Below are positions 25,352-42,106 of a stretch of 64,000 nt of DNA, in pieces. Position numbers and translations under genes: made by a program. The notes under the pieces are model-generated. The model saw only the letters and a list, made by a program, of their open reading frames with translations, searched no databases and was not told where the DNA came from. Each line of letters opens with the position of its first letter. Position 1 is the first letter of the stretch. The DNA is from an uncultured bacterium (GTDB taxonomy: Bacteria > Patescibacteriota > Saccharimonadia > Saccharimonadales > 2-12-FULL-41-12), in NCBI GenBank assembly GCA_963834265.1, contig CAWIAU010000001.1, positions 588,346 through 652,345 on the forward strand, given 5' to 3'.

Positions 25352-25609
25352 GGGCAGGCATCAGCAGAGTATCCAGCGTGTATAAAGACGGAGCTGTAAA
25401 CAGTAAAGTAATAAATACCCTCGCAATAAGTCCCATGTATCTAAGATGATACCAAACGGATCTGACGAGTAAAATTGCTTATGCAGATTATTTTCTTGGG
25501 TTAGAAAAGCCAATCAGAGCGACAATTGTTGTTGCTATAACGTTGGCAATCAACATAGATTACTATAAAAAAGCAGGTACTGATGCGTGAATAATCTATG
25601 CCTGTAATT

Positions 25610-26158: not shown

Positions 26159-26265
26159 AATACCTATTATATATAATAATTATAATATTATCAAATAAGA
26201 CAGAAGTGTATTACCTTACGAAAAACAGTTTTTAGACCTTTGAAAATAATAAAGTCAGTAAGGTA

Positions 26266-27158
26266 TTATTTTTTGGTGTTTGCGCAAACAAAATAAGCCT
26301 GGCAAACTCTATCGGTAAAATAACCTTCGTGCTCATCGGTAATCGTCATGGACACTTCCTGATCGAAGATTGCTTTTATTTCCGTTTCTATAATTTCTTT
26401 GACAGTCGCCGGATTCGCGAGCTTACCCGTCGACCTATCAAACATACTATCTTTGAGGCTATCCAGTGCATTGCTGTAATCAGGCCATCCATCAGTAGTA
26501 ATATGAAGCGGCGAATCCTGAAACACAGGGCCATCGAGTATTTCAAACCGTTGCCCTAAGAGTCTTTGAGTTTTTTCAATGTCGCAATGGAAATAGTAGG
26601 AAGGTGGCATTTTTGCATCAAGCTTGTCAGCTACAATTCTTGCTAAATCCCACATTTTTGCCAGGTTTTTTGGGCTACGGGTAGCGATTAATAATCGACC
26701 CCCCCTTTGAGTACTCGCTTCATTTCATCAAGTGCCTTTTCGGGGTCAGCTATGTGGTAAAGAATATATAAGGCCACAACAACATCAGCGGAGTTTGTTG
26801 GGAATGCCAGGCTGCGGGCATCCATTTTTACGAATTTTACATTCTCTACGCCCTTTTCTTCTAAAGTATTTTGAGTTTCAGTGTATATTTCGGTGTCGTT
26901 CACGCCAATGATTTTACCGAAATGACTGGATTTTACTATTTCCAGAATCTCTTTACCGGCACCGCAACCTATATCAATAACTGTTTCATGACCTCCCAGT
27001 TTCATCGCCTGAATAATTTTCTCATAGAGGTTGCAGCGTGGGGATGAGAATTTTGTGTATAGGGTTTTGCGAACCTCTATGTTGCGTGGCGAGTGGCGGT
27101 ATTGCAGCCTCGAAAGATTATCTATATGGAAAAGATGCTCATCTGTTTTTGTTGTCAT
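26266..27158 (-). pseudogene. Class I SAM-dependent methyltransferase split by a frameshift in a G7/C7 homopolymer
   Basis: The N-terminal fragment (26688-27158) carries motif I VIDIGCGAGK and ends KGGVDY*. The C-terminal fragment is 26266-26655. Reading one extra G in the C-run at 26699-26705 gives a continuous ...LKGGGRLLIATRSPKNLAKMWDL... sequence. Confidence 0.7.
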
Positions 27159-27286
27159 AGTAAAATGTCGTTCTAAGATGCAATGTTATTTTATGTCGTT
27201 GCAGGAACTTATTTGCTCGTATCGCCGCTCAGGAAACCTGTTTCGCATTTGAATATACGCTACTTGTCTTTGTTTATCAATAAGAT

Positions 27287-27946
27287 CTATGTGGGAATGA
27301 AAGCTTTAGCTATGTCAACGACATCTTTGATAGTATCAGCGTATATATCTGCCCCCTCTTGCTCGTAGCCTTTTCGCAGATTCTGTTTCAGGCCGATAAC
27401 TGTGGCTCGAGAGGCTTTCGCGGAGGCAATACCTATATTCGTATCTTCCAGTATGATAGTACTCTCGGGAGTGGCGTTCAGAGCCTGAATAACCTCATTG
27501 TAGCCATCGGGAGCGGGCTTATGCGCCAGATCAGGACGATCATGCAAAGAAAGTATGATTTGAATATTATTCTTGAAAGGCAAACGCTCTACAACTTCAT
27601 TTACCCACTCTTTCGGAGAAGCCGAAACTATCGCCATATGGTAATTAAGTTTATGCAGCACGCGGCCAAGTTCATCTAAACCTGTAGAGAGCGGTGCTTG
27701 CTTATAAATCTGGTCTGCCTTGTTCTTAACCTCCATCATGAAGTTAGCTTTATTCGCTTTTGACCCAAGTTTCATGGCTGTTTCAAAGATAAGATCTATA
27801 TTTTTTCCGGTAGTTACTCCAATATTTCTTGCAATTTTCTCGCCAAAAATTCTGGAGTAGTTGAGCTGATTCCACTCATACCAAAGATTTTCGCTGTCAA
27901 TTAATACACCGTCCAGATCAAAAATAAAGGCTTTATTAGCAGGCAT
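27287..27946 (-). CDS. HAD-superfamily hydrolase (subfamily IA, beta-phosphoglucomutase-like)
   Basis: Motif I FIFDLDGVLIDSE, with a later LEDTNIGI block. Confidence 0.85.
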   Translation of the reverse strand: MPANKAFIFDLDGVLIDSENLWYEWNQLNYSRIFGEKIARNIGVTTGKNIDLIFETAMKLGSKANKANFMMEVKNKADQIYKQAPLSTGLDELGRVLHKLNYHMAIVSASPKEWVNEVVERLPFKNNIQIILSLHDRPDLAHKPAPDGYNEVIQALNATPESTIILEDTNIGIASAKASRATVIGLKQNLRKGYEQEGADIYADTIKDVVDIAKAFIPT

Positions 27947-27947
27947 A

Positions 27948-29249
27948 TTAATAACGGTAGTGGTCTGGCTTGTAAGGGCCGGCTACCGGAACATCCATAT
28001 ATTCTGCCTGTTCGGGGCTGAGCTTCGTCATATGACCATTAAGCGCTTCAACGTGTACTAATGCCACTTTTTCATCCAGCTCCTTTGGCAGACGATATAC
28101 GCCAACTTCGTATGGTTTGGTGAATAGCTCGATTTGAGCCAGAACCTGATTGGAGAAAGAGTTAGACATGACAAATGACGGGTGACCGGTAGCATTACCG
28201 AGGTTAACGAGGCGGCCTTCGGACAGGACAATCAGCCGGCGGGACGAGCCAGGCATTGTATACAGGTCGACCTGAGGCTTAATCTCTTCTTTTTTAATAC
28301 CGGTGAGTTCATTCAGTTGTTTAATTTGTATCTCATGGTCAAAGTGTCCGATGTTACAAACAATAGCGGTATCTTTCATTTGCTGCATATGTTCCAGCCT
28401 CACAATGTCTTTGCATCCTGTAGTAGTAACAAAAATATCCGCGTAGGATGCAGCTTCTTCCATTGTAACCACCTCGTAGCCTTCCATGAGGGCCTGCAAG
28501 GCACATATAGGGTCAATCTCGGTAATCAGCACTCTGCAGCCAAATGACCGCAGTGACTGGGCACTTCCCTTGCCGACATCACCATATCCGGCTACAACGG
28601 CTACTTTGCCGGCCAGCATTACATCTGTTGCCCGCTTGATGCCATCTACCAGTGACTCGCGACAGCCATACAGGTTGTCGAACTTGGACTTCGTTACAGA
28701 ATCGTTGACATTTATAGCCGGAATTTTGAGTTTGTTCTCTTTGACATATTGATTAAGCTGTTTGACACCTGTGGTGGTCTCTTCGCTGACGCCTTTGACT
28801 TCTGTCAGCAAATCAGGATGTTTATCATGTACCAAAGCTGTCAGGTCGCCGCCATCATCCAGCAACATATTCGGGCCTTTTCCATCCGCAAATACCAGTG
28901 TCTGCTCAATGCACCACCAGTACTCTTCCTCGCTCATGCTTTTCCAGGCAAAAACAGGCGTACCGGCTTCTGCGATCGCAGCTGCAGCGTGATCCTGCGT
29001 CGAAAATATATTACATGAGGACCAGCGGACTTCAGCGCCCAGAGCCTGCAATGTTTCGATAAGGACAGCGGTTTGAATGGTCATATGGATACAGCCCGCA
29101 ATCCTGGCGCCATTGAGTGGCTGAGACTGCTTGAATTCTTCCCGCAGGGCCATAAGTCCTGGCATTTCCTTCTCTGCCAGTGTGATTTCGGTTCGTCCCC
29201 AGTTTGCCAGTTCAATATCTTTGACCTTATAATCTGGTTGATCTGACAT
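27948..29249 (-). CDS. ahcY: Adenosylhomocysteinase
   Basis: Full-length SAH hydrolase with the NAD site [12 protein letters not shown] and a C-terminal PYKPDHYRY tail. Confidence 0.95.
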
Positions 29250-30212
29250 TTATAGTTCCACGCTTTCGTTAAAGTTTCCTTTGTACCTGTCTTCTATTTG
29301 CCGGATATTTAATGGTTGTTGTGTGCCATGCCGTTCGATCACAAATGACGCAAGCACAGCTCCCAACTGCCCACATGTTTGCAGATTCCATTGTCTCAAA
29401 TATCCGTATAAGAATCCAGCCCGGAAAGCATCCCCTGCCCCGGTCGGATCGACTACCTGAGTTGGCTGAGCGATACCAATAGTGATAGGTACGGTCACAT
29501 CTCTGCCCTCGATTACGGATCCCTTGCTGCCAAAGGTAGTAATAACTATCGGAACATTCGATTTAATATTTTCGGGACTTAATCCGGTTTTTTCGGATAA
29601 AACGCCTAGCTCGTAATCATTAACAGTCAGGATCTCAGCCGCGTTAACTCCGATGGCCAGATCATCACCGGATACATTGCTGACCTGCTGACCCGGATCG
29701 TATAGCATACGGATTTTCAGATCTTTGCACTGCTCCGATTGCGAACGCATAGCAACCGGATCATGGGCTGATATACACGCCAGCACATCTTGTCCTGCCC
29801 ACTTATCCAGACCAAGTGAAGATGAATCACTCATTGCTCCCGGATAGAACCCGCCTACCTGGTTGCCATCCATATCTGTCATCACATTGAATGAGGCGGT
29901 TGCCAGCTCGCTATAATGAACAAACTCCGTATCTACACCTATTTCGGTCAGCTCAGAGATGTAGAGTTCGGCATCTCTGCCGACTGCACCGAGTAGTATC
30001 GGATGTTCACCCAGCCGGGCCAGATTGTGAGCAATATTAGCAGCCACACCACCTCTTGTCTGCTCGAGCTTATCCAGTAATACGCTTAGCGATAGTACGT
30101 GCAGTTTATCTGCCTGAATCAGATCTTTGTACCGGCCATCAAAATTCATAATACGATCAATAGCAATTGATCCGGACAGTATGAGTTGAGTCTGGTCAGA
30201 AGAGTTATTCAT
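29250..30212 (-). CDS. PfkB-family carbohydrate/nucleoside kinase (adenosine kinase plausible from context)
   Basis: The DPTGAGDAFRAGF signature. The gene is directly abutted to ahcY. Confidence 0.85.
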   Translation of the reverse strand: MNNSSDQTQLILSGSIAIDRIMNFDGRYKDLIQADKLHVLSLSVLLDKLEQTRGGVAANIAHNLARLGEHPILLGAVGRDAELYISELTEIGVDTEFVHYSELATASFNVMTDMDGNQVGGFYPGAMSDSSSLGLDKWAGQDVLACISAHDPVAMRSQSEQCKDLKIRMLYDPGQQVSNVSGDDLAIGVNAAEILTVNDYELGVLSEKTGLSPENIKSNVPIVITTFGSKGSVIEGRDVTVPITIGIAQPTQVVDPTGAGDAFRAGFLYGYLRQWNLQTCGQLGAVLASFVIERHGTQQPLNIRQIEDRYKGNFNESVEL

Positions 30213-30248
30213 TGACTAATCATAACATGTATGCGGGGCTCTATTCGT

Positions 30249-30277
30249 TTGAGTATGTTGCTTTAAAGATATATACT
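30249..30277 (+). promoter_or_regulatory. Promoter of the rib operon (TTGAGT-17-TATACT)
   Basis: -35 at 30249-30254 and -10 at 30272-30277. The predicted start coincides with the riboswitch P1 stem. Confidence 0.5.
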
Positions 30278-30283
30278 ATAAGT

Positions 30284-30398
30284 ACTCTTTCGGGGTTGGG
30301 TGCAAGTCCCAATCGGTGGTTACAGCCCACGAGTTGCCTGGCAACACGATTTGGTGAAATTCCAAAGCCGACCGTATAGTCGGGATGAAAGAAAGAGT
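30284..30398 (+). promoter_or_regulatory. FMN riboswitch (RFN element) aptamer
   Basis: P1 pairs ACUCUUUC (30284-30291) with GAAAGAGU (30391-30398). Conserved RFN blocks are present: GGGGUUGGGUGCAAGUCCCAAUCGGUGGU, GAUUUGGUGAAAUUCCAAAGCCGAC and AGUCGGGAUGAAAGAAAGA. It lies upstream of ribBA. Confidence 0.85.
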
Positions 30399-30426
30399 GC
30401 AGACGCTTTTAATTGTGTATGCATAT

Positions 30427-30450
30427 TCCCCGAATTGAGGGGATTTTTTT
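30427..30450 (+). promoter_or_regulatory. Riboswitch expression-platform hairpin (SD-sequestering or weak terminator)
   Basis: UCCCC-GAAUUGA-GGGGA followed by U7 running into ATG 30451. The GAGGGG arm is the only SD-like sequence for ribBA. Confidence 0.45.
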
Positions 30451-31683
30451 ATGACGACAGAATTTTCAACTATCAAAGAGGCTATCAGAGCGGTGCGGGG
30501 CGGCAGTATGATCATTATTATCGACGACCCGGGGCGCGAGAATCAGGGGGACATATTCTTCCCTGCTCAGGCGGCAACAACCGAAAACGTCAATTTTCTG
30601 ATCAGCGAATGCCGGGGACTGGTCTGTGCTCCCTTGTCATACGAGTATGCCAAAAGGCTTGATTTGCAATTGATGATACCGCCGGCCGACAACTCTGAGA
30701 GTACATGTGTCAATTTCACTGTCAGCGTCGATGCCACAGATGTCACGGACTTCGGCATATCAGCATCTGACCGTGCATTAACGTTACGTTCACTGGGTGA
30801 TAATCAGTCTCTTTCATCTGATCTGGTTCGTCCAGGTCATATCTTTCCGCTGATTGCAAATGAAGGCGGCATCCAGGCCCGTCAGGGGCATACTGAAGCA
30901 GCTGTGGAGATGTCTGTTCTTGCGGGATTCAGTCCTGCGGGCGTTATCTGTGAGATTCTGGATGCAGATGGCCGGCCGTCGCGTTTGTCTTCTCTGTGTA
31001 GATTTGCCCGCAAATACAACCTTCCGATTATTACAATTGCCGATCTCGTTGAGTATCAGAAGGCGCACGTCAAAAATGAGGAAACAGAGACGACAGCTAT
31101 GACTAAAGCAGCAGAAGCGACCCTGCCAACTGCTTACGGGACATTTCAAATTTCTGCCTATACCTCGTTTCTTGATGACCGTGAGCATGTGCTATTAACC
31201 TGCGGTGATATAAGCCGGGGACCTGTGCTCACCCGCGTCCATTCCAAATGTTTTACCGGCGATACGTTACTGTCTCTGAAATGCGATTGTTATGACCAGC
31301 TTGACCGGAGTATGAAGCTAATACAGGAAATAGGTCACGGAGTCATAGTTTATCTGGATCAGGAAGGCCGGGGAATCGGTCTGATTAATAAACTCAGAGC
31401 CTATGTACTGCAGGATCAAGGTATGGATACCGCGCAGTCTAACGAAGCTCTCGGGTTTTTGCCTGACCTGCGTGACTATAAGGCTGCTGCTGACATACTA
31501 AAAAATGTTGGTGTAACCAATATTGAATTACTGACGAACAATCCGGAGAAAGAAAGACAACTATCAGCAAATGGTATAAAGATTGCAAAGCGCATCCCGC
31601 TGGAGATTGCCCCGAACACTGTCAACAAAACCTACCTTCAGACCAAGAAACTTAAAATGGGCCATCACCTAACGAAAATTTAG
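30451..31683 (+). CDS. ribBA: Bifunctional 3,4-dihydroxy-2-butanone-4-phosphate synthase / GTP cyclohydrolase II
   Basis: DHBP synthase N-domain (DDPGRENQGD) and the GCH II zinc motif CFTGDTLLSLKCDC. Confidence 0.95.
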   Translation: MTTEFSTIKEAIRAVRGGSMIIIIDDPGRENQGDIFFPAQAATTENVNFLISECRGLVCAPLSYEYAKRLDLQLMIPPADNSESTCVNFTVSVDATDVTDFGISASDRALTLRSLGDNQSLSSDLVRPGHIFPLIANEGGIQARQGHTEAAVEMSVLAGFSPAGVICEILDADGRPSRLSSLCRFARKYNLPIITIADLVEYQKAHVKNEETETTAMTKAAEATLPTAYGTFQISAYTSFLDDREHVLLTCGDISRGPVLTRVHSKCFTGDTLLSLKCDCYDQLDRSMKLIQEIGHGVIVYLDQEGRGIGLINKLRAYVLQDQGMDTAQSNEALGFLPDLRDYKAAADILKNVGVTNIELLTNNPEKERQLSANGIKIAKRIPLEIAPNTVNKTYLQTKKLKMGHHLTKI

Positions 31684-31684
31684 T

Positions 31685-32770
31685 ATGCAAAATTCTGATA
31701 TTAATTTCATGAAACAAGCCCTGAAGCTGGCGCGAAAAGGTATGGGTAAGACATACCCCAATCCCCTTGTTGGCGCTGTTATAGTAAAAAATGACCATAT
31801 TATTGGTTACGGTTATCACAAAAAAGCCGGAGGCCCGCATGCCGAAATATATGCTATTAATTCAGCAACAAAGAAACTGCAGGGCTCAACTATGTATGTA
31901 AATCTCGAGCCGCATAGCTATACTGGCAAAACGTTGCCGTGTACAAAAGCAATTATTGCCACTGGTATCACAAGAGTAGTTTGTGCGACCATGGATCCCA
32001 ATCCAAAAGTTCAGGGTGATGGCATTAATCAGCTCCGGAATGCAGGTATTGAAGTACTGACCGGCATTCTTGAGGCAGAAGCATGCTTGCTTAATGAACA
32101 GTTTTTTACATTTCATAAAAATAAACGCCCTTTCATTGCTGTCAAATACGCAGCAAGTCTCGACGGGAAGCTCTCGACAAATAACGGCAACTCCAAATGG
32201 ATTACAAATGATGCTGCACGTGCATATGGGCGCAAACTGCGAAGTAAGTATCAGGCAATTCTGGTCGGGATCAATACTGTGATTGCAGATGATCCGCATC
32301 TTGGCACCCGACAAGTATACAAATCTGATCCCATACGGATTATTCCTGATTCAGAACTGCGCATTCCCATAAACGCTCAGGTTTTGCGTGATAAGAATGT
32401 TCTGATTGCTACCTCGTCTTCCGCGCCGGCGGCAAAGAAAAAGCAACTTATAGCTAAAGGTTATAATGTTGTGAATTTCGACGGCCCCCGTGTACCTATA
32501 AATAAACTTATGACTAAACTATATGAGCTGAATATCATCAGTGTGCTGATCGAGGGAGGCGGAGAAACCATAGGAGAATTTACAGACCAAAAATTGATTG
32601 ATAAGGTGTACGGATTTTATGCACCGATACTCATTGGCGGTAAAAACTCTGTGTCAATTGGTGGCAAAGGCATAGCCAATATTTCAGAAGCTCTTCAAGT
32701 CGCGCGACCACGGATCAAACGATTTGATGATAATTTCCTGATCGAGGGATTAACTAAAAACAAGGATTAG
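31685..32770 (+). CDS. ribD: Diaminohydroxyphosphoribosylaminopyrimidine deaminase / 5-amino-6-(5-phosphoribosylamino)uracil reductase
   Basis: Deaminase HAEIYAI ... LEPHSYTGKTLPC plus a C-terminal reductase domain (KYAASLDGK). Confidence 0.93.
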   Translation: MQNSDINFMKQALKLARKGMGKTYPNPLVGAVIVKNDHIIGYGYHKKAGGPHAEIYAINSATKKLQGSTMYVNLEPHSYTGKTLPCTKAIIATGITRVVCATMDPNPKVQGDGINQLRNAGIEVLTGILEAEACLLNEQFFTFHKNKRPFIAVKYAASLDGKLSTNNGNSKWITNDAARAYGRKLRSKYQAILVGINTVIADDPHLGTRQVYKSDPIRIIPDSELRIPINAQVLRDKNVLIATSSSAPAAKKKQLIAKGYNVVNFDGPRVPINKLMTKLYELNIISVLIEGGGETIGEFTDQKLIDKVYGFYAPILIGGKNSVSIGGKGIANISEALQVARPRIKRFDDNFLIEGLTKNKD

Positions 32771-33264
32771 TAAGGACAGACTTTCGTAATTGTTTTAGAT
32801 TGTACGGGTTGAGAATCCTGCACCAATGCATGAGTTTCCCAATATACTTTACTGGCTGTTGTCTGCTTTTCGTCGCCCGGGAAAGGCGGACTGCCAGGCC
32901 CGATCCATGTATCGAGTATTTCATAATTCCCGTCTTTGTCCTGCTCCAAAGCAATAGTAAGTTTGCTGCTTGGTAGAGGGTATCGGTTTTTGGCATAACG
33001 CGAATACACTTTTTTCTTGGGGGGTTGCGCGTAGAAAATAATGTCTTTTTCGCTGGTCTCTACAATGTCTGTATTGCCGATTACGCGGCCCATATCGTAT
33101 TCTATGAATAATTCTGACTTACGCAGATCTTGTGTTGCCAGTGCTTCTTTTACGAGATTGATCATGTATGGCTGGCGACTAAGGCACTGACCGGCCGGAG
33201 ACTCTATAAAGTTAACATAAACTTCATATCCATGTGCTGACCGTGTAATAACAAATTTATACAT
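32767..33264 (-). CDS. Hypothetical protein (165 aa)
   Basis: GAGGAG lies 10 nt upstream of the ATG. I recognise no family. Confidence 0.6.
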   Translation of the reverse strand: MYKFVITRSAHGYEVYVNFIESPAGQCLSRQPYMINLVKEALATQDLRKSELFIEYDMGRVIGNTDIVETSEKDIIFYAQPPKKKVYSRYAKNRYPLPSSKLTIALEQDKDGNYEILDTWIGPGSPPFPGDEKQTTASKVYWETHALVQDSQPVQSKTITKVCPY

Positions 33265-33322
33265 AAACTTCTTACTCCTCAGTATACGCTTATTTATAGG
33301 TAATAGCGATTACAAATAAGGC

Positions 33323-33489
33323 TATATAGAACTTTCGCACTTTCCCACAGCCCCGGAACTCATCTGAGCTGCTGCAAATTGCCCATCTTCTCTCAATGTA
33401 GCTACGGCTACCCCTCCGGAAGCTGAACAATTTTCGCTAAACCCAGGCTGACCTCCGGAATCCATGTCAAAGTGCGAAAGTTCTATATA
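33323..33489. repeat. 21-bp perfect inverted repeat pair enclosing a 125-bp core
   Basis: TATATAGAACTTTCGCACTTT (33323-33343) is the exact reverse complement of AAAGTGCGAAAGTTCTATATA (33469-33489). Confidence 0.9.
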
Positions 33490-33498
33490 CTGGATAAC

Positions 33499-33948
33499 AT
33501 GAAAATAAAGATTGAGCTTGTCCGCGCAATTGGCAGTGAATTTGTAAACCGTAAGCTGAAGTCAATCGTAATAGTTTTTGGGGTCATCGCACTGATCAGC
33601 CTGATCCTGACAGTATGGCTGGCAACAATAAGCGCATGGTGGCTGCTTCTGTTACTTCCCTTCCTTATTTTTACGATGCTTGGCTTTCTGGCAGGTCTGG
33701 CGGCAAGAGTGGTCATTAAAACGTTACGTCCCGAGCTAACGCGATCTCAAAAAACCGATGTAGGAAACTTCGTTGATAAGCTGGAGCGCGTCGCCGAAAA
33801 TATTCAGACTCCTATGTTCATCATTGTCTTTCGTGTAGTACGCGATATTATCCGCCCAGGTGAAAGAACTTTTGTCCGGTCTGTGGCCAAAGACAGCACC
33901 ACGCTGCATAAGGATTTCTCTGAACTTGAGCAAAATTTCAAAAACTAA
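33499..33948 (+). CDS. Small membrane protein, unknown function
   Basis: Two adjacent hydrophobic helices. I prefer the ATG at 33499. The listed upstream GTG at 33472 lies inside the inverted-repeat arm. Confidence 0.6.
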   Translation: MKIKIELVRAIGSEFVNRKLKSIVIVFGVIALISLILTVWLATISAWWLLLLLPFLIFTMLGFLAGLAARVVIKTLRPELTRSQKTDVGNFVDKLERVAENIQTPMFIIVFRVVRDIIRPGERTFVRSVAKDSTTLHKDFSELEQNFKN

Positions 33949-33964
33949 TTCAAAACTGATAATC

Positions 33965-34510
33965 TTATTCAGTTACATTTTTCATACGATCCGATAACTT
34001 TCGGACAGTATTGCAATTACGTATAGTTACCTGCCCGTATAAATCAGTCCCGATGATTTTCATTAAGCCACTTCGTGTAACGTTCTTACGATCAACGCGC
34101 CATAAAATGGCGCCTGGCGTATAAACTACGTCATCTATATCCGGTTTGATAATAAGATTTTTGACTATATCGGGGGTGTTTACTTTATCCCACAGGAACA
34201 GTACATCGCATTTCATCGTATCATCGTTTTTCCATGTATCAGGTAGCTTTTCAGCAATTTCATGAATATTTCTGATGTCTTTGATAACCAGCTTTATGGC
34301 AAATCCAATCTTTTTCTTGATAGCGTTCTCTAATTTTGCAGTAAGACTTTTTGTATCAAGAGATTTATTTGCGAATATAACATTTCCGCTATTTATATAT
34401 GTAGTAACTGAGCTCATACCAGCCTGCTCGAAAGTTGCTTTGAGCTCTTTCATATCAACTTTGTTCTTGCCGCCAACATTTATACCGCGAAGTAATGCTA
34501 CGTATATCAC
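33965..34510 (-). CDS. DUF1697 domain protein
   Basis: The N-terminus MIYVALLRGINVGGKNKV is characteristic of DUF1697. Confidence 0.8.
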   Translation of the reverse strand: MIYVALLRGINVGGKNKVDMKELKATFEQAGMSSVTTYINSGNVIFANKSLDTKSLTAKLENAIKKKIGFAIKLVIKDIRNIHEIAEKLPDTWKNDDTMKCDVLFLWDKVNTPDIVKNLIIKPDIDDVVYTPGAILWRVDRKNVTRSGLMKIIGTDLYGQVTIRNCNTVRKLSDRMKNVTE

Positions 34511-34604
34511 ATAATCAGTTTATCAAATAACATGATGCGATTCTTCACCCAAGAATAAATTAAATTATTGCGTTATATGGAAATGAGTTGTATAATATAT
34601 AGTT

Positions 34605-36122
34605 ATGGACACACCGTATCCCGGACCAGGGAATGGCAATAAACGCGCAGCTGCAGCAATTACATCTAGCCTTGAGTTAATGCAGGAAATTCACCATCGT
34701 CTTCCTGATGTTGAGATTCGTGATGAACAAATAGATGCACTTGATGCTATTGAGGAGAATGAACAGGCAGGAAATCCGTCAAGTTTGATTGTTTTGCCTC
34801 CGGGCTTGGGTAAAACCGTTATTATGGCTGCTGACACTCGTCGTCGCTTATTGCGAGACCCTGCAGCAAGGGGGGCATTTCTGAATGATAAAAATGATAT
34901 TCTGAATCAGTCCCGTGATCGCTTCGAAAAAATCGTTGGGGAGGAGTTTACTTATGGCTTGTTCAGCGGTGATGGTCGTGATTATGATGAACTATCCGTA
35001 TTGTTCGGTTCTTTTCAGGTTATGCGCGAGTGGCGATATGCATTCCTGAAGGATGAGTTTAAATTCGGAGTTGTTGATGAGAGCCATCATGGTATGGCTC
35101 CGACATATAAACCCACGCTGGATTATTTTGACTTCGAACATTTACTGGGGGCGACGGCAACACCGGATCGGTTAGACATCAAAGATATCAGAGATATTTT
35201 CGGACCAGAGATTTACAGTATGACACTGGAAGTGGCTATAGCACGTCGTTTGCTTGCCGCTGTTGACTATCATGTTATAAGTGATGAAATTACGGAAACG
35301 GGTGTTGTTCTGGACGATGACGGTCATCGTTACGATGCAAATGAGTTTAACCGAACAATATTTGCTCCCCGTCGGGATGAAGAAATTGCTGACATCGCAA
35401 AACGCTACGCGCTTAGACTTAAAAATCCCACAACAATGGGTTTTTGCAAATCGATCGAACATGCGGAAAAGTTCTCCGGACTATTTGAAAATGCGGCTGC
35501 CCTGCATTGTGATTTAAAGCGTCCTAAGCAACGTGAGTTATTGGATCGATTCAGGAGTGGAGATCTAAAAGCTTTGTTTACAGTAAATATGCTTGATGAA
35601 GGAATCGATATACCTGAGGCTAATCAGGTGCTATTCCTGAGTGCTACAGGATCAAAGAGGAAGTATTTGCAGGAATTAGGCAGAGGCCTGCGAAGGACCA
35701 AGACCAAAAAGCGGGTACAAGTATTGGACTTTGTAAATAATGCTGAGCGGTTATTGCTTGTTGATCGTATGTGGCGGGATGCCGCTATTATTGCCGGGGG
35801 AGATGATCCTGCTGACAAAGAAATCTTTGATATCAACATCAGCAAAATACATTTTGACGAATCCTCGCGTAGTGCCCTGCAAATATTACGCGCAATAAAC
35901 GGCAGAGTATATAGGGCTGATCAGGCTGTGCCCGCAGAATCGTTGCGCGCTTCAGGTCTTGCGAAAGAATTAGGCATGTCGAAACCGGCCTTATTGGCAT
36001 TAGCTGCTTCTTTAAAAATCGCGCCTTCAGTTTTTCCAACGCAAAGAGGCAGTAGAGTTCCCTATTTTGTATCTGACGACGTCGAGCGTTTACGGCTAGC
36101 TCGTGATCATCTTTTTCAGTAA
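34605..36122 (+). CDS. SF2 DEAD/DEAH-box helicase (ResIII + helicase-C type) with a helix-turn-helix-like C-terminal tail
   Basis: Motifs PPGLGKT, VVDESHH, GATATPDR and LQELGRGLRR. TTGCGT-17-TATAAT ends 8 nt before the ATG. Confidence 0.85.
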   Translation: MDTPYPGPGNGNKRAAAAITSSLELMQEIHHRLPDVEIRDEQIDALDAIEENEQAGNPSSLIVLPPGLGKTVIMAADTRRRLLRDPAARGAFLNDKNDILNQSRDRFEKIVGEEFTYGLFSGDGRDYDELSVLFGSFQVMREWRYAFLKDEFKFGVVDESHHGMAPTYKPTLDYFDFEHLLGATATPDRLDIKDIRDIFGPEIYSMTLEVAIARRLLAAVDYHVISDEITETGVVLDDDGHRYDANEFNRTIFAPRRDEEIADIAKRYALRLKNPTTMGFCKSIEHAEKFSGLFENAAALHCDLKRPKQRELLDRFRSGDLKALFTVNMLDEGIDIPEANQVLFLSATGSKRKYLQELGRGLRRTKTKKRVQVLDFVNNAERLLLVDRMWRDAAIIAGGDDPADKEIFDINISKIHFDESSRSALQILRAINGRVYRADQAVPAESLRASGLAKELGMSKPALLALAASLKIAPSVFPTQRGSRVPYFVSDDVERLRLARDHLFQ

Positions 36123-36201
36123 AGTAAACATTTTTTTAAAAATAATGCAATCATAAAATACTATTGATTTATAATTAAATATCTTCTATAATACACATAT
36201 T

Positions 36202-37863
36202 ATGGGAGAACTTCTTTACGGACCGGAAATTAGTATAGATATTGAGCGCACTCAATCTGTATTCGAGACTGCTCATGAATTAAATTTGCAGATTTCTGAA
36301 CAGAATGAACGATTTGCTACTGCACACGAGATATTTGTTGATGAACCCGAGGTACTTAGATTAGCCGAACAAGGAATAGCAGAAGAACAACAGGAAACAT
36401 TTACAAATTTATCAACCATCGGACATAGTGAAGCGCAAGTCTATACATCATTAGGCGTGCTGAGCCTGTACTATGACAGTGAGTTAGAAGAAACACAGGC
36501 AAAAGCTGATGCGGCGCAAGCAGAAGGCGATGCAAAATCTGATCAGTTTGAAATAATTAAACAACAACGCGAGCAAGATGAAAGAAGTAAACTTGAGGAT
36601 ATACTCGGCCACGTTGAACGGCTGGCACCTAAAGCCCTGGAACGAGTCAAGGCATTACTGGACGAACGAATAGTTGGTACTGTGTCCAGCCAGGAAATTC
36701 TCGATTTAGAGGAAACGATTCTGGATTTATTCACTGAGGTAGATGAGCATAAGGAACATATAGATTCTATAGCTCGTCAAAAAATTTCATTAACTGAACT
36801 GGATAGGCAGGCTGATGATACCTGGGCACTACCACAGGCACTTATGAAGGTGCTTGGAAATGACACAAGTCAGTGGGTTTTGATAGATGAATTACCCGTC
36901 GATCCTACCTTAAGCCGGAGCGGCCATGAACGATACGCAGAGCTTCGTGGAAGGCACATAGACCAACCTGATGCATCGATTTATGCTGCTCTGTATTTAT
37001 CAGAACATGATAGCGAAACAGTTACAGTAGATGAAATTGCAGGTTTTCTGTACACACCCGAAACAATTGCCGGCATTAGTAATAACAACCTGCGGGCTCG
37101 CGTGACTACTCTTTTGGGACCAATAGCCGGAGAGTGTTTGCATAAAATTTTATTATCTGAGGGATATATCCTTCAGTACGGATGGCGCCGTAAATTGGAA
37201 AAAAATGGAAGCGATGACGTAAAAATTGTTTCCAGACATCGTATATACCGTGCAGTGCCACTTAATGATCTTAGTGTTCTGGAAACAGATACATCCTCAC
37301 AAGAGGATTATAAGGATGATTTCGAAGTAACACCGGAAATTGTAGGTCTGTTCACCGATTTTAAGCAGGAACGGGCAGCAAAACCCCCAGAAGCAGTCAT
37401 AGCCTCCAACCCAGATTCAGCAATCCGACTGCCTGCGCACAGAGATGGCACCCGATTGAGGACTCCGGCAAAGCCCGAAGAAGAGTTGCCGAGGTGGGTT
37501 AAAGAGTTTGAGAAAGAGGTTATGGATATACTAGAAGAACTTGAAATGTCCGATATGCTGACATCAGAAGAGGGCGAGTTAATTAAGGTTGCCCGGCACA
37601 AAAGTCGGAGCCGTAGCTTTGCTACTGAAGAAACTCTGACAAAACTTTACAATGCAGGCCACATGAGACAGCTATCAGGTATTCCTCGTCCACGCTGGGG
37701 AGACGTAAAAATTACTGCTCCAGATATGATCATAATGAAAATGTTTACTACCAAAAGAGAGCTACTGGGTAAAGGCCAGCCCCGACGTCCGGTTGCAGAA
37801 AGTATTATCGAGGGCGTTGTAGCTGACTACTTTACCCACAAAAGAGAGATAAATCCGCGATAA
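36202..37863 (+). CDS. Hypothetical acidic protein (553 aa)
   Basis: A long ORF with a Glu/Asp/Gln-rich, helix-prone N-terminal half. TTGATT-17-TATAAT ends 9 nt before the ATG. I recognise no domain. Confidence 0.65.
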   Translation: MGELLYGPEISIDIERTQSVFETAHELNLQISEQNERFATAHEIFVDEPEVLRLAEQGIAEEQQETFTNLSTIGHSEAQVYTSLGVLSLYYDSELEETQAKADAAQAEGDAKSDQFEIIKQQREQDERSKLEDILGHVERLAPKALERVKALLDERIVGTVSSQEILDLEETILDLFTEVDEHKEHIDSIARQKISLTELDRQADDTWALPQALMKVLGNDTSQWVLIDELPVDPTLSRSGHERYAELRGRHIDQPDASIYAALYLSEHDSETVTVDEIAGFLYTPETIAGISNNNLRARVTTLLGPIAGECLHKILLSEGYILQYGWRRKLEKNGSDDVKIVSRHRIYRAVPLNDLSVLETDTSSQEDYKDDFEVTPEIVGLFTDFKQERAAKPPEAVIASNPDSAIRLPAHRDGTRLRTPAKPEEELPRWVKEFEKEVMDILEELEMSDMLTSEEGELIKVARHKSRSRSFATEETLTKLYNAGHMRQLSGIPRPRWGDVKITAPDMIIMKMFTTKRELLGKGQPRRPVAESIIEGVVADYFTHKREINPR

Positions 37864-38161
37864 TAAATCTTATTCTTTAATAGATGTCACCAGATAAATA
37901 GTCCTCTATCATAGACGAACTTAGTAATAGCAAAATACACTGCATTCAAAATAATTTCATGTTACGTGCTTAACCCGGCAAACGAGGAGCCTACATTTGT
38001 ACCACATTGCATAAATGAAAATACTGAAATCGTGTGTCACATGAACGCAATCATCTATATCCCGAGACATATTTTCCAAGAACATGATTTTACTTAGTAA
38101 AGAAATAATATACATAAAATGCAGGCTTGAATCCGGTGGTTGTGAGGATATAATACCTGGT

Positions 38162-38584
38162 ATGAGCAGTACTATAAAAACACATGTTAATGATTCCAGT
38201 GTCAATGATTTTATTAATGCCGTGAGCGATGAGGCTAAGAAAGAAGATAGCTTTACGCTTCTGGAAATGTATTCCAGAATCACCGGTGAAGAGCCCAAAA
38301 TGTGGGGTTCGAGTATTATCGGCTTCGGACAATATCATTACAAGTCAGAACGCAGCAGGCAGGAGGGCGACTGGCTTCTCACCGGATTTTCGCCGCGTAA
38401 GCAAAACCTGACTCTATATTTTATGCCGGGGTTTGATGGTTATGCAGAAACGCTTACAAAGCTCGGCAAGCATAAGACGAGTGTCGGATGTTTGTATATT
38501 AAGAAGCTGGCTGATGTAGATAAGAGTGTTCTGGAAAAGTTGATCAGGCAGTCTTATTTGGAAATGAAAAAGAAACACAGCTAA
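38162..38584 (+). CDS. DUF1801 (YdhG-like) domain protein
   Basis: The blocks VNDFINAV ... GFGQYHYKSERSRQEGDW ... LYIKKLADVD are typical of DUF1801. TTGAAT-16-TATAAT ends 7 nt before ATG 38162. Confidence 0.75.
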   Translation: MSSTIKTHVNDSSVNDFINAVSDEAKKEDSFTLLEMYSRITGEEPKMWGSSIIGFGQYHYKSERSRQEGDWLLTGFSPRKQNLTLYFMPGFDGYAETLTKLGKHKTSVGCLYIKKLADVDKSVLEKLIRQSYLEMKKKHS

Positions 38585-38647
38585 ATAGTCGATTTCATGT
38601 AATCTGACCGGGGGGGTAGTTCTAAATTAAAACTTATATGCTGGCGA

Positions 38648-39076
38648 TCATGCGGACAGATGTTCGGGTGTTCCTGCAGCAGCGGGAGCTGGCCTTAAAG
38701 GCCCTGTCAGGACAGGTTCCGCGTAAATAAGCGGAATATCAATAGCGAAATGACCTTGATTGAGTACAACTTTTGGCGATTCTCCGCATAGTGCGTCCTG
38801 ATATCCGGCCGTGTAGTCTACTCTGCCTCTAGCAATTCTTGCTGCGTGTCGAAAAACTCCGCTTGCGATTCCCAATCCCAGGCTTACTGCTCCGGTAAGC
38901 AATGGGGGGTCTCCCTCAACGGCATGTTTAACGGATATATATCCTGCAATCGTACTGCCAACTCCGGTAAGGAATGCCTTCCTGTCATCATTCAGAGCGT
39001 TCCGTGCCATCTTTTTTTGGGCAGGATCTAGTTTATCGCTACCATAATCTTGCTTAAATTCTTCTAACGCACCCAT
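38648..39076 (-). CDS. Hypothetical protein with two predicted membrane helices
   Basis: AAGGAG lies 7 nt upstream of the ATG. The central segments are Gly/Ala-rich and hydrophobic. Confidence 0.55.
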   Translation of the reverse strand: MGALEEFKQDYGSDKLDPAQKKMARNALNDDRKAFLTGVGSTIAGYISVKHAVEGDPPLLTGAVSLGLGIASGVFRHAARIARGRVDYTAGYQDALCGESPKVVLNQGHFAIDIPLIYAEPVLTGPLRPAPAAAGTPEHLSA

Positions 39077-39142
39077 GCATCATCTCCTTTCTTTAACATG
39101 CTAATTATTATGCCATATTTCAACTTCGGCCATCAATAATAA

Positions 39143-39260
39143 TGCCACGGAGGAGGGATTCGACCTTGCCATGACAAATTAAAATTAAATTTGTCATGGC
39201 AACTCTTCGGGTGGCAGGCGGCCAATGTCCACAGGGCATTGTCGTTCGAATCCCCCGCCA
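39143..39260. other. Composite palindromic / structured element containing inverted tRNA T-arm-like fragments
   Basis: A perfect 15-bp hairpin (39166-39180 with 39188-39202) is nested in a 12-bp helix (39143-39155 with 39203-39216). A second hairpin domain follows at 39217-39259. The flanks GGAGGAGGGATTCGACC and GTCGTTCGAATCCCCCGCC form an imperfect inverted pair resembling the tRNA-Gln T-arm and acceptor. Confidence 0.6.
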
Positions 39261-39305
39261 AAGAAAAAGGTTTGCACATGAGTACAAGACTCACGGTCAA
39301 ACCTT
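39260..39305 (-). terminator. Intrinsic terminator after tRNA-Gln
   Basis: On the minus strand, AAGGUUUG...GUGAGU-CUUGU-ACUCAU...CAAACCUU is followed by UUUCUUU, starting right after the encoded CCA. Confidence 0.6.
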
Positions 39306-39380
39306 TGGCTGGGGAGGAGGGATTCGAACCCCCGAATGCCAGTACCAAAAACTGGTGCCTTACCACTTGGCCACTCCCCA
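39306..39380 (-). tRNA. tRNA-Gln (anticodon UUG), CCA encoded
   Basis: The 75-nt sequence UGGGGAGUGGCCAAGUGGUAAGGCACCAGUUUUUGGUACUGGCAUUCGGGGGUUCGAAUCCCUCCUCCCCAGCCA folds as a cloverleaf. It has a U1-A72 pair, the anticodon loop UUUUGGU, and close resemblance to bacterial tRNA-Gln. Confidence 0.93.
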
Positions 39381-39429
39381 CTGCACGTTTATTTTACCTT
39401 AAAGGTGTTCGAATTATTAATATGTATTT

Positions 39430-39525
39430 AAAAACTGACCTGCGGTCGGCGTGCCAGTACCGATTAATTGATTTGGTTGCGATGAATCGCAACTGGCTGG
39501 TGCCTTACTACTTGGCCACTCCCCA
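39430..39525 (-). other. tRNA-Gln-like fragment: 5' half plus anticodon-stem 3' strand, with a 35-nt hairpin insert and no T-arm
   Basis: UGGGGAGUGGCCAAGUAGUAAGGCACCAG matches the real gene at 28 of 29 nt. A 35-nt insert containing GUUGCGA-UUCA-UCGCAAC follows, then GGUACUGGCA, then GACC-GCA-GGUC and a U-run. There is no GGUUCGAAUCC and no 3' acceptor strand. Confidence 0.6.
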
Positions 39526-39620
39526 ACGAATTGTAAATAACAGATGGAATTGTAGCATATAACGATAATAAAAATTTGATGTTCTAAACAGGGCCTAAAG
39601 AAGTTATAATAACCTTTAGC

Positions 39621-40487
39621 ATGAGAGTTATTGAGCCGCAAAAGCTATCTACTAAGGCAGTGCAGGATTCTGGACGTAATTATTCTAAACTTATTCTTTT
39701 GAGTTTGTTGGTTGTCGGAGCTGTGGTTGGTGGGTGGTATTTTCTTTCTAACAAATCATCCCCTGCTGAGCGGGCAAAGAATGGTTCAGGGAGCAATAAC
39801 TCAGCGCAGGTACTGGCTGAGTCACCCAAAAAAGGAACGCTGAGAATATTTACACCCCAGCAGTTCCGCGATCTTTATAATAATTTTGCATATCCCAATA
39901 CCGAACGTATCAGCGACAAGACTCCGATAACCGGCAATACCGAAGCTGATAATTATATACGCGCAATGGCTCAGGAAAGAGGTTACACACTGCGCAGTGC
40001 TCCGGTAGCAAACGTATTTCAAGAGGTTGCACCAGGCATGACCCTTCAGCAAAAGGCCGCTCAGCCATGGCTTGACATGCAGGCCGCGGCAAAAAAAGAA
40101 AATATTGAGATAGATCTTTCAGCTGCTTACCGCTCAGCGGCAGACCAGACAGAAATATTTACTTCCCGCTTATCGGTTGCCGGCATCAATGCCAGCCGAA
40201 TTCCATCCGGGGCGTACGACAAACAGATATCGACGGTTCTGCAATCGACAGCCGTACCGGGCTATTCCAGACATCATACAGGCTATACAATTGATATAAC
40301 ATGCGTCAAAACACCAGCACTGTCGTTTTTGGCTACAAATTGCTTTGAATGGCTCAGCAGAGATAATTACAAAAATGCCAAAAAATATGGCTGGATACCC
40401 AGCTATCCGGAGGGCACCGGAATGCAGGGGCCTGAGCCTGAAGCATGGGAATACGTCTGGGTTGGAACTGACACAGTAACCGAGTAG
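39621..40487 (+). CDS. M15-family peptidase (VanY / D-alanyl-D-alanine carboxypeptidase type), membrane anchored
   Basis: N-terminal transmembrane helix, SRHHTGYTIDI (S-x-H-x-x-G-x-x-x-D) and a C-terminal EAWEYVWVG. Confidence 0.8.
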   Translation: MRVIEPQKLSTKAVQDSGRNYSKLILLSLLVVGAVVGGWYFLSNKSSPAERAKNGSGSNNSAQVLAESPKKGTLRIFTPQQFRDLYNNFAYPNTERISDKTPITGNTEADNYIRAMAQERGYTLRSAPVANVFQEVAPGMTLQQKAAQPWLDMQAAAKKENIEIDLSAAYRSAADQTEIFTSRLSVAGINASRIPSGAYDKQISTVLQSTAVPGYSRHHTGYTIDITCVKTPALSFLATNCFEWLSRDNYKNAKKYGWIPSYPEGTGMQGPEPEAWEYVWVGTDTVTE

Positions 40488-40578
40488 TGCTTTGTCATAC
40501 GATATTCGGGGTATAATAGTCTGAACAAGCAATAATAGCGGCACATCATACGCCGCAAACAGATCAGGAGAATTCGAA

Positions 40579-41124
40579 ATGGCACTCGCATCGACAGTAT
40601 TATTAGATGAAGTAAATGACGGGGCAATAATTGGTCAGTCGTACCTCAAAAGGCCACGCTGGTTCCGGGTGCTGGTCGGAGTACCATTGATATATATCCC
40701 GATATTAGTCTCAATGCCATTTGTCGTTCTGGGCATATTGGTAGTTCGCATGCACCTGCGAGCTTTAGGTGCTCATAATATGAAAAGTTATTGGGATTTT
40801 GTACCGGAGAAAGCATCCCATCGTTATACCAGCACAACCCAGCCGAGGTATAACAATAATCCTTTCGCTATTGTTCATTACAAATGGTTCTGGCTCTTTA
40901 ACTGCCGGATGTACTGCCCAATGTCAGTTGCCGGACTACGCTATTACACATATCTGGTAAAAATTGTTGAGAATTGGTGGTGCCCGTTTGAGCATTCACG
41001 CAAACATGAATATTCGGATGCAACTATCGACGGATCATTCTGGCATCTGCGCAAAAAACACCGTGATATGCTGCACCCCGATGATCGCGATAACCCGATC
41101 TGGAATAAAAATAAACGAAAGTAG
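40579..41124 (+). CDS. Hypothetical membrane protein with a Trp/His/Cys-rich C-terminal region
   Basis: AGGAG lies 8 nt upstream of the ATG. One clear transmembrane segment. I recognise no family. Confidence 0.55.
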   Translation: MALASTVLLDEVNDGAIIGQSYLKRPRWFRVLVGVPLIYIPILVSMPFVVLGILVVRMHLRALGAHNMKSYWDFVPEKASHRYTSTTQPRYNNNPFAIVHYKWFWLFNCRMYCPMSVAGLRYYTYLVKIVENWWCPFEHSRKHEYSDATIDGSFWHLRKKHRDMLHPDDRDNPIWNKNKRK

Positions 41125-41185
41125 AGCAGATCATAACTGCTTATGATTGCCTTTTATCAGGGTTTAACGTACATTTTGTAACTAT

Positions 41186-42106
41186 ATGAGCAATACCAAA
41201 AATAATAAATATATAATGCCCCTCCACGTGAACAACCTGAATGGCCGTATGTTGTGTCTGCCCCCCAAAAAAGATAACAGAAAACGAGAGATTTTGGTTT
41301 TATACGGTCAGCATGCCAGTCTGGAACGCATGGCCGGCATTGCCGAGGTATTGAACGGATATGGTGCGATTACAATTCCTGATTTGCCGGGGTTTGGCGG
41401 TATGGATAGTTTTTATAAAATAGGTTCCAAACCTACACTCGATAATTATGCTGATTATCTGGCATCAATTATCAAACTCCGTTACAGCAAACGCAAAGTT
41501 ACTATTGTAGCAATGTCGTTTTCGTTCCTGATTGTAACCCGCATGCTGCAACTTTATCCGGAACTTACAAAAAGAGTTGATATGCTGGTTAGTTTCGTCG
41601 GGTTTTTGCACCGCGATGACTTCCATGTGAGAAAATCCATATACTGGACATGGCGGTCTGTTGCGTTTTTATTCGGTAGTCGTATCGGCTCAACCTTTGC
41701 GCGATATATATTACTTCAACCCTGGGTTATCAGGTCGGCTTATGCATTAGTATCCGGACGCCACCCTAAACTCATGGGGGCTAATAAATTAGAGCAAAAA
41801 AAACGAGTAGACTTCGAAATAAAACTCTGGCATATAAATGATATGCGCACACGGATGAAAACTCTCAAGGCCATGATTACAGCAGATTTATGCAAGCAAT
41901 CCGTTAAAATGCCGGTTTATCATGTATCTGTGGCCGGAGATTTCTATTTCAATAATAACGTTGTTGAACAGCACATGCGTATTGTTTACAGCGATTTTGA
42001 AAATATACCTGCCAAAGTTTCCGCGCATGCTCCGACAATTATAGCTACAGCAAAAGACGCCGCCCCGTTTATACCTCCCCGTCTGCGCAAATTACTATCA
42101 AAGTAA
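41186..42106 (+). CDS. Alpha/beta-hydrolase-fold protein (tentative, atypical nucleophile elbow)
   Basis: ILVLYGQHAS ... DLPGFGGMDS ... VTIVAMSFSF follows the alpha/beta-hydrolase layout but lacks a canonical G-x-S-x-G. Confidence 0.5.
   Translation: MSNTKNNKYIMPLHVNNLNGRMLCLPPKKDNRKREILVLYGQHASLERMAGIAEVLNGYGAITIPDLPGFGGMDSFYKIGSKPTLDNYADYLASIIKLRYSKRKVTIVAMSFSFLIVTRMLQLYPELTKRVDMLVSFVGFLHRDDFHVRKSIYWTWRSVAFLFGSRIGSTFARYILLQPWVIRSAYALVSGRHPKLMGANKLEQKKRVDFEIKLWHINDMRTRMKTLKAMITADLCKQSVKMPVYHVSVAGDFYFNNNVVEQHMRIVYSDFENIPAKVSAHAPTIIATAKDAAPFIPPRLRKLLSK

Follow-up and report, generated by a model that had tools for sequence, protein, structure and literature searches.

The T-loop is a classical sublocation within tRNA genes for recombinases that integrate there. 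In tycheposons, successive insertions stack partial tRNAs beside the tRNA gene (10.1101/2020.12.28.424599). Two further sources describe, respectively, a single-strand exchange mechanism for folded single-strand sites (the CTX-phi attP(+) hairpin and XerCD; PMC3442271) and integron cassette arrays (PMC12614218). Here we analyze a hairpin element of about 118 nucleotides (nt) that lies just behind a tRNA-Gln gene in a 64,000-nt stretch of DNA from an uncultured bacterium of the order Saccharimonadales (contig CAWIAU010000001.1, positions 588,346–652,345; hereafter the window, in whose coordinates all positions are given). The element belongs to a recurrent family of small, non-coding modules that form strong hairpins and are attached 3' of tRNA genes in Patescibacteria (the candidate phyla radiation, CPR). 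It is a structured variant that is new within an established class, the tRNA-linked attachment repeats; literature searches turned up no account of a tRNA-linked hairpin module of this kind. We tentatively read the modules as structured recombination sites of integrase-less mini-cassettes that target the tRNA T-loop, with a probability of about 45%.

The locus was read on the minus strand because the tRNA-Gln gene lies on that strand. The intact tRNA-Gln(UUG) to which the element is attached spans 39306–39380 (minus strand; called by ARAGORN and scoring 64 bits with the Rfam tRNA model). Its 3' end is at 39306 and the near edge of the element is at 39260, in agreement with an original prediction, made from the sequence alone, of an element of about 118 nt beginning 45 nt beyond the tRNA. 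Delimited by sequence reading, repeat searches and folding, the element (39260–39143, minus strand) reads GGCGGGGGATTCGAAC / GACAATGCCCTGTGGACATTG / GCCGCC TGCCACCCGAAGAG / TTGCCATGACAAATT-TAATTTT-AATTTGTCATGGCAA / GGTCGAATCCCTCCTCC-GTGGCA. Its 5' closing strand, GGCGGGGGATTCGAAC (39244–39259, minus strand), was found by repeat search, is kept in the relative L162 described below and repeats the T-loop and the T-stem's 3' strand in inverted form; within it, GTTCGAATCCC at 39244–39254 is a perfect inverted copy (11 nt, 100%) of the tRNA T-arm at 39319–39329. Hairpin 1, CAATGCCC-TGT-GGACATTG (39223–39241, minus strand; sequence and folding), contains a single C-A mismatch on the minus strand, which is a G-T pair on the plus strand. 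The middle segment, GCCGCC-TGCCACCCGAAGAG (39203–39222, minus strand; sequence and comparison with L162), leads to a strand-neutral long hairpin (39166–39202; repeat and exact searches) with perfect 15-bp arms and the 7-nt loop TAATTTT. This is the perfect hairpin of the original prediction: its arms, TTGCCATGACAAATT at 39166–39180 and 39188–39202, are the sole exact matches within the window, and the repeat search lengthens them to 18 nt at 94% complementarity. The 3' closing strand and tail, GGTCGAATCCCTCCTCC-GTGGCA (39143–39165, minus strand; repeat search), repeats the tRNA in direct orientation, from the T-loop on into the 3' acceptor strand, except that its last 6 nt have diverged from the CCAGCCA of the tRNA. 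The direct repeat TCGAATCCCTCCTCC is exact over 15 nt and begins at T-loop position 55/56, and GGAGGAGGGATTCGA was found exactly twice in the window, at 39149–39163 and within the tRNA at 39313–39327. Relative to the tRNA end, the inverted copy stands at +51 and the direct copy at +142. The 15-nt direct and 11-nt inverted matches bear out the earlier view that the flanks are inverted, T-arm-like copies, and the second domain that it described, GGCGGCCAATGTCCACAGGGCATTGTCGTTCGAATCCCCCGCC, can be read directly in the sequence.

On both strands the element folds far more stably than expected by chance. The plus-strand fold has −54.4 kcal/mol (z = −5.45) and the minus-strand fold −48 kcal/mol (z = −3.63), with 0 of 200 shuffles as good in either case. 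In the minimum-free-energy folds, the two T-arm-like ends pair as an outer closing helix, and the helix between TGCCAC and GTGGCA is unused. The latter belongs to a 12-bp helix, TGCCAC-G-GAGGAG / CTCTTC-GG-GTGGCA, that had been proposed to enclose the long hairpin and one arm of which lies in the middle segment. The complementarity is present, with one G-T pair that is indeed a wobble on the plus strand only; the helix is absent from these folds and not kept in L162.

L162 is the closest relative obtained, with an adjacent VanY protein 68% identical to that of the window. Comparing relatives at the tRNA-Gln locus, as had been proposed, showed that the element is present there too, in a shared gene order of DUF1801, small open reading frame (ORF), element, spacer, tRNA-Gln and VanY, with the ORF beyond the element unrelated between the two. 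The element matches at 89 of 110 positions (81%), whereas the adjacent spacer, which is not conserved, matches at 15 of 46 (33%). In hairpin 1, which reads CAAAGTCC-TGT-GGACTTTG in L162, a T-A pair has changed to A-T in a compensatory manner. The long hairpin keeps its outer TTGCC/GGCAA pairs and the TAATTTT loop, and two loop-proximal pairs are altered on both sides. The middle segment in L162 is GCCGCC-CAACGCCCGAAGGG, so that GCCGCC and CCCGAAG are conserved and the TGCCAC arm is not; the TGCCAC/GTGGCA complementarity is lineage-specific and may reflect chance (roughly 1%, an estimate) or a palindrome-perfecting template switch. The comparison also supports the outer closing helix of T-arm-like ends. 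Unlike the diverged tail of the window, the tail in L162, CCCCAGCCA, is the exact tRNA 3' end. The window copy is old and vertically inherited, with a maintained interior and a tail that has drifted from the tRNA sequence. Its interior class, for which the test of compensatory change comprises two sequences only (the window and L162), is a less common one and carries a long AT-rich hairpin; a comparable hairpin is found in L147.

The same architecture recurs across the CPR. In a set of 120 CPR tRNA-Gln loci, not chosen for presence of the element, about 10 shared a layout of tRNA, hairpin spacer of ~50 nt, GGATTCGAAC, covarying hairpins, and CGAATCC with the remaining tRNA 3' end; L004, L050, L054, L068, L092, L093 and L103 all carry it behind tRNA-Gln. 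A pattern scan of metagenomes added 36 further loci with the element, which lies 9–60 nt 3' of a tRNA, always in the orientation of that tRNA and in some cases between two tRNAs of one operon. The tRNAs concerned are Gln-UUG/CUG, Arg-UCG/CCG and Ser-UGA/GCU/CGA, with looser variants behind tRNA-Arg(GCG), a tRNA with a different T-stem. The direct copy matches the local tRNA (for example, ...CTCTCCGCCA, ...GGGAGCACCA and ...GCCCTAGCCA). The inverted copy is at +51 in L068, L092, L125 and L135, as in the window; in some members it reaches over the acceptor strand, by up to 19 nt in L131, where the stem equals the acceptor/T-arm minihelix of tRNA-Ser. The window element shares the following features with the family as defined here: it is co-oriented with its tRNA and 45 nt behind it, it has an inverted copy at the 5' end and a direct copy at the 3' end, and its structured interior is kept by compensatory change between the window and L162. 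Matches to the 3' 25-mer of the tRNA-Gln are almost exclusively from Patescibacteria/CPR (Saccharimonadales, Peribacteria/Peregrinibacteria and others).

Interiors are conserved as structures. In a 15-sequence alignment of the commonest interior, 99% of the cells were paired and none of 500 shuffles reached the observed score; changes on both sides were seen at 10 pairs, comprising 7 of the 9 pairs in hairpin 1 and 3 of the 6 in hairpin 2. Two covariance models were built, R1 from this commonest class and R2 from the window and L162. R2 matched at least 20 other members in the correct place and orientation with expectation values (E) from 4.5e-8 to 0.01, partly because of the shared tRNA-like ends. 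Matches in the tRNA sense included L135 (4.5e-8), L105 (1.4e-5), and L126, L137 and L092 (4e-5 to 2e-4). The long hairpin was also scored by R2 on the plus strand.

Several loci give evidence that the modules move as DNA. From a point in the tRNA 3' end onward, L001 and L092 align at 91% identity for 1370 nt, with unrelated upstream flanks. Compared with the empty L001, the occupied L092 is longer by 134 nt (spacer, interior and repeat), inserted exactly at that point; this is an insertion polymorphism of the kind sought when empty and occupied sites were proposed as a check. Recent copying is evident on one contig, where 159 nt are 100% identical behind tRNA-Ser(CGA) and tRNA-Ser(GCU); the copy spans T-arm, spacer and interior and extends into the repeat, whereas the tRNA bodies and outer flanks differ. 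Tandem arrays are present in L054, L093 (period 344, 98% identical), L121, L129 and L138, and the distal unit in L138 has decayed. Tandem Repeats Finder returned no rows for the array loci because the arrays sit at contig ends. In L105, L023, L024 and L147, cargo of 1–5.6 kb is bounded by the tRNA, or by a first element, at one end and by an element and its repeat at the other; the genes include NUDIX, HSP20, nucleotidyltransferase and restriction-modification genes, and no integrase was found in the cargo segments of these four loci. The 5.6-kb segment of L147 (560–6490) is flanked by a tRNA-Ser plus a first element and, at its opposite end, by a second element that has a 13-nt repeat. The segment encodes a pair of DNA methylases, of which one is joined to a LexA-like S24 peptidase domain, together with DUF5655 and DUF3800 proteins, and is restriction-modification/defense cargo without an integrase. 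The empty/occupied pair, the identical copy at two loci, the arrays and the cargo speak for mobility within the family, whose members would most likely be sites at which short mobile DNA segments insert.

What is copied appears to be DNA. The most similar interiors stand behind different tRNAs (94% between Arg-CCG and Gln-UUG), and their tails match the tRNA next to them. CCA is not encoded by the L103 tRNA gene and is missing from the repeat as well, which points to copying of DNA or of primary sequence, not of mature tRNA. Retro-copying of mature tRNA was rejected on this ground and because some repeats continue into the non-transcribed or trailer flank.

The modules resemble the attL/attR repeats that T-loop-targeting tyrosine integrases make from tRNA 3' ends, and tRNA-linked islands such as tycheposons. 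The repeat extends from the T-loop across the acceptor strand to CCA, a whole tRNA and a partial copy stand at opposite ends, successive insertions are stacked beside the tRNA, and the flank is a variable island. Unlike these systems, the modules have no integrase in or near the unit, and their units are as small as about 110–160 bp. They differ also in that the partial tRNA is always preceded by a conserved, covarying interior and an inverted tRNA copy, and in that the interior is under constraint. There is a parallel, too, with attC and CTX-phi sites: the modules are imperfect palindromes with conserved ends and a variable, covarying center, the stem rebuilds a double-stranded copy of the target site, units form arrays, some with one to a few cargo genes that look promoter-less, and the recombinase need not be inside the unit. 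However, the two module alignments inspected have the ends GGATTCGAAC ... CGAATCC and lack the RYYYAAC / GTTRRRY boxes of attC; no IntI or other recombinase adjoins the "attI-like" tRNA as it would in an integron; the repeat shared between module and target is 11–22 nt or more, not 6–7 nt; and strand bias is weak and inconsistent.

These comparisons suggest a mechanism of which we infer three parts: the recombinase, a circular intermediate and a folded single-stranded form. Each module begins with the T-loop and 3' T-stem strand of the tRNA in inverted form, in some cases lengthened by a complement of the 3' acceptor strand. At least two hairpins make up its structured interior, and a direct tRNA copy from the T-loop to the 3' end closes it. 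The enzyme would be encoded at some other place in the genome and would most likely be a tyrosine recombinase recognizing the near-palindromic T-arm GGTTCGAATCC; it would join a small circular segment (interior, copy of the tRNA 3' end, and spacer or cargo) to the T-loop of a tRNA gene. The product would be an intact tRNA followed in turn by the spacer or cargo, the interior and, as a direct repeat, the native 3' end that had been displaced; further integrations would yield tandem arrays and make the 3' flank of the tRNA a hot spot of variable genes. In the large hairpin the stem copies the tRNA 3' end as a duplex; this likeness to the target, as in attC and CTX-phi, suggests that the site may be presented in the form of folded single-stranded DNA.

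A number of results weigh against this mechanism. A circle of 110–340 bp is near the lower limit for double-stranded recombination. Classical integration gives the functional tRNA the element's own acceptor-strand copy, and moving one interior between Arg, Ser and Gln genes therefore needs extra steps. L121 and L138 have a further copy of the spacer behind their last repeat, a finding that fits unequal exchange or duplicative insertion better than simple integration. R1 gave no significant match to the window element (E about 9), the interior of which belongs to another class. In the lineage of the window no empty allele was found, the relatives being either occupied (L162) or rearranged (L163), and no second repeat or element bounds the variable genes left of the element between 28 and 39 kb. 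Nor was a recombinase located: Pfam found no integrase in the ORFs examined within 23308–42106 (ten left of the tRNA up to 34.5 kb, all at 34.6–39 kb and the first three on the right), no recombinase gene adjoined any module-bearing locus, and a tblastn search of 169 loci and the window with an approximate XerD query of limited sensitivity gave L148 as its sole match. For the window, the Pfam and XerD results agree with the earlier statement that no integrase is nearby. The phage-borne attP-like copy that the original prediction proposed to look for did not materialize, as no viral contig carried the element; three scans of viral contigs, plasmid collections not being searched, gave nothing or chance matches. 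Five viral matches to a relaxed pattern were rejected as attP candidates, lying by chance inside coding sequence without hairpins or tRNAs, and an exact search for the palindrome in genome and viral collections gave no match. No repeat remnant was found between the orphan ORF next to the element and DUF1801.

A structured non-coding RNA is the main rival. It would derive from the tRNA transcript, by read-through or within an operon, and mimic the top half of a tRNA (acceptor and T-arm); it could serve as a processing signal, decoy or sponge, with the duplications at DNA level secondary. This would suit the strong covariation of the stems without conservation of their sequence, along with conserved junction and loop nucleotides (AAC, CGGCAC and the loop GAGATTAATCGA), the constant orientation of the element with its tRNA, the conservation of the element beside a diverged flank, the stem in L131 that reproduces the tRNA-Ser acceptor/T-arm minihelix with 16–19 bp matching, and the better folding of the tRNA-sense strand than of the antisense strand in 26 of 32 non-symmetric members. 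In L123/L149, L124 and L132 the element is 10–60 nt from each of two tRNA genes with no terminator between, and the location of modules within or just after tRNA transcription units is shared with the spacer RNAs of tRNA operons, the 3' external or internal transcribed spacers that act as small-RNA sponges. In the window and most tRNA-Gln loci, however, a hairpin and T-run stand between tRNA and element, and the element has no promoter-like site before it. The window copy folds better on the opposite strand, and its two non-Watson-Crick positions form wobble pairs on that strand only. Insertions with exact boundaries, arrays, cargo genes and copies shared between loci are marks of mobile DNA, and the tail is absent or truncated in L055, L125 and L145. 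Known RNA families do not account for the element either: the Rfam 15 covariance models, those of tRNA-like RNAs, tmRNA, Y RNA and ribozymes included, gave no match to it in the window beside that to the tRNA, whether at the gathering threshold or at E up to 10, and tRNAs were likewise the sole matches in sets of eleven and eight element-bearing loci. In long variants, GGAUUCGAAC-GGG...CCC-(C)GGAC resembles the tRNA-like domain of transfer-messenger RNA (tmRNA) with its 5' GGAUUCGAC motif, a likeness that the searches did not support. A tmRNA identity, considered because GGATTCGAAC-GGG is like the 5' region, was not borne out: there was no Rfam tmRNA match, ARAGORN called no tmRNA either for the window or for the 15 loci given to it, and the single tmRNA call made looks spurious. 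Most modules, unlike spacer RNAs and tmRNA, lack a 5' acceptor strand, and a terminator usually precedes them. We consider an RNA unlikely as the primary explanation, while noting that the two are not mutually exclusive; between the structured RNA and the recombination site that the original prediction had offered as alternatives, we favor the recombination site.

That prediction had also entertained att-site debris, and its link to recombination at the tRNA 3' end stands at the level of the family, given the start in the T-loop, the L001/L092 pair and the variable 3' flank. The reading as debris itself finds no support. Decaying attL/attR fragments of integrase-bearing prophages or islands lost from the tRNA-Gln 3' end would explain a direct repeat running from the T-loop to the 3' end, at the classical sublocation, as well as the variable 3' flank and drifted tail in the window and the 5' tRNA fragment upstream. 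Prochlorococcus tycheposon islands do hold partial tRNAs and remnants of older integrations (10.1101/2020.12.28.424599). Yet neutral remnants should not show 81% identity beside a flank at 33%, with compensatory stem changes, where the adjacent VanY is only 68% identical, nor the same covarying interior behind different tRNAs in many lineages; whole elements are only 110–340 bp with exact boundaries, and no integrase remnants were found. We therefore disfavor this reading as improbable. A selfish palindrome of the kind formed by repetitive extragenic palindromes (REP/REPIN) or miniature inverted-repeat transposable elements (MITEs), mobilized by a transposase of, for example, the IS200/IS605 or RAYT type and preferring sites after tRNA terminators, is very improbable. 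Like these, the modules are short (60–160 nt), non-coding, formed of long hairpins, placed after genes and their terminators and sometimes tandem; short-read assemblies break at these loci, and elements stand at contig ends in L128 and L141. Their ends, however, are not constant: they copy the acceptor strand of the neighboring tRNA and vary with it. Every copy seen adjoins a tRNA and is co-oriented with it, no fixed-length short target-site duplications flank the elements, and in the 64-kb window the element is single copy, with no dispersed matches to its arms or ends.

A bolder form of the recombination-site reading, which we regard as speculative and rather doubtful, is an integron-like cassette system in Patescibacteria, with tRNA genes as the docking site and a trans-encoded recombinase inserting at the T-loop. 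Small cassettes without an integrase would end in a folded, attC-like hairpin whose stem copies the T-arm and acceptor end; the smallest would be a bare hairpin unit of 110 bp, and the largest would hold a few kb of defense or stress genes. Entry would be beside the tRNA, with older cassettes decaying at distal positions. The "U" elements, 5' fragments that have insertions in the anticodon loop, would then represent a mirror-image outcome at a second classical site of integration in tRNA genes.

The "U" element of the window (39440–39560, minus strand; direct-repeat search) comprises what looks, from its sequence, like an ancestral tRNA-Gln promoter, and a tRNA-Gln 5' fragment spanning 39530–39440. 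The promoter, TGCTACAATTCCATCTGTTA, is common to the real tRNA-Gln promoters of L006, L162 and L163. In the fragment, a 35-nt hairpin insertion takes the place of the anticodon-loop TTTTT and is followed by the 3' strand of the anticodon stem, with no T-arm. Comparable 5' fragments with loop insertions occur in L073 and in an array upstream of the tRNA in L001. The idea that this 5' fragment and the element are halves of a split tRNA was rejected, as their acceptor strands no longer match and the two features are independent in relatives. In L163 (1–260, minus strand; VanY 65% identical), the same promoter precedes a pseudo-tRNA-Gln with a T-loop insertion of ~90 nt and no 3' acceptor strand; a second tRNA-Gln begins 45 nt after it and runs off the contig, and the 3' part of the insertion, an AT-rich hairpin followed by GG-TCGAATCCC, resembles the window element. 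L166, L167 and L168 have the same promoter and position beside VanY, with a tRNA-Gln(UUG) of very different body (acceptor CGGGATC...), which suggests that the tRNA gene itself has been replaced at this site.

On the minus strand, the order of features around the element is the "U" fragment, a promoter-like site (39420–39391, minus strand; promoter consensus scan), the intact tRNA-Gln, the 45-nt spacer, the element, a second promoter-like site and an orphan ORF. The spacer, termed "F" (39261–39305, minus strand; sequence reading and inverted-repeat search), is an imperfect hairpin followed by TTTTTCTTT; judged by sequence these are likely the terminator of the tRNA-Gln, and a terminator consensus scan made no call there. 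The promoter-like site TTGATG-18-CATAAT (39107–39136, minus strand; promoter consensus scan) would serve the orphan ORF of 142 amino acids (38648–39076, minus strand), which had no homologue among 5.8 billion proteins and so could not be used as an anchor. The element is upstream of this site and hence probably not part of the mRNA of the ORF, and a role as leader of the downstream gene was rejected. It was likewise rejected as an intrinsic terminator, the 15-bp hairpin being AT-rich and without a T-run on either strand.

The right (5') flank of the tRNA, which encodes VanY, a 306-amino-acid protein and glycosyltransferases, is syntenic across Saccharimonadales. The left flank, 3' of the tRNA, is non-syntenic and differs in every relative compared, and the tRNA-Gln 3' flank is therefore a variable hot spot. 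In the window it holds the orphan ORF, DUF1801, a restriction-like ResIII helicase and a 553-amino-acid protein. The ResIII/Helicase_C protein has a helicase region matching models of type IV and type I restriction enzymes; the 553-amino-acid protein that follows has no family match, and the pair (34605–37863) is defense-like. A Logan short-read assembly of the same organism (ERR12037361) breaks within the tRNA-Gln locus at ~39331–39354, with one contig starting 255 nt before the orphan ORF and another 267 nt before VanY, consistent with internal tRNA-fragment repeats confusing the assembler; contigs of several relatives also terminate at this locus. Elsewhere in the window, an FMN riboswitch (107 bits) stands immediately upstream of ribBA (DHBP synthase / GTP cyclohydrolase II) and ribD (30282–32770), a riboflavin pathway within an otherwise typical Saccharimonadales genome, and a ribosomal protein L10 leader lies at 55212–55342 (minus strand; 46.8 bits against an Rfam gathering score of 44).

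CPR bacteria have tiny genomes with few recognizable mobile elements, and their exchange of accessory and defense genes is poorly understood. A conserved, structured, tRNA-linked site that marks insertion points, forms arrays and brackets small cargo segments would be a concrete, testable route of gene flux without a linked integrase, and it would also account for the breaking of short-read assemblies at these tRNA loci. The modules are useful as markers of island boundaries and are potential false positives for island finders based on tRNA fragments. If the hairpin acts as folded single-stranded DNA, the principle of attC and CTX-phi would be extended to tRNA targets; if the element is instead an RNA, it would be a new mimic of the tRNA top half set within tRNA operons.

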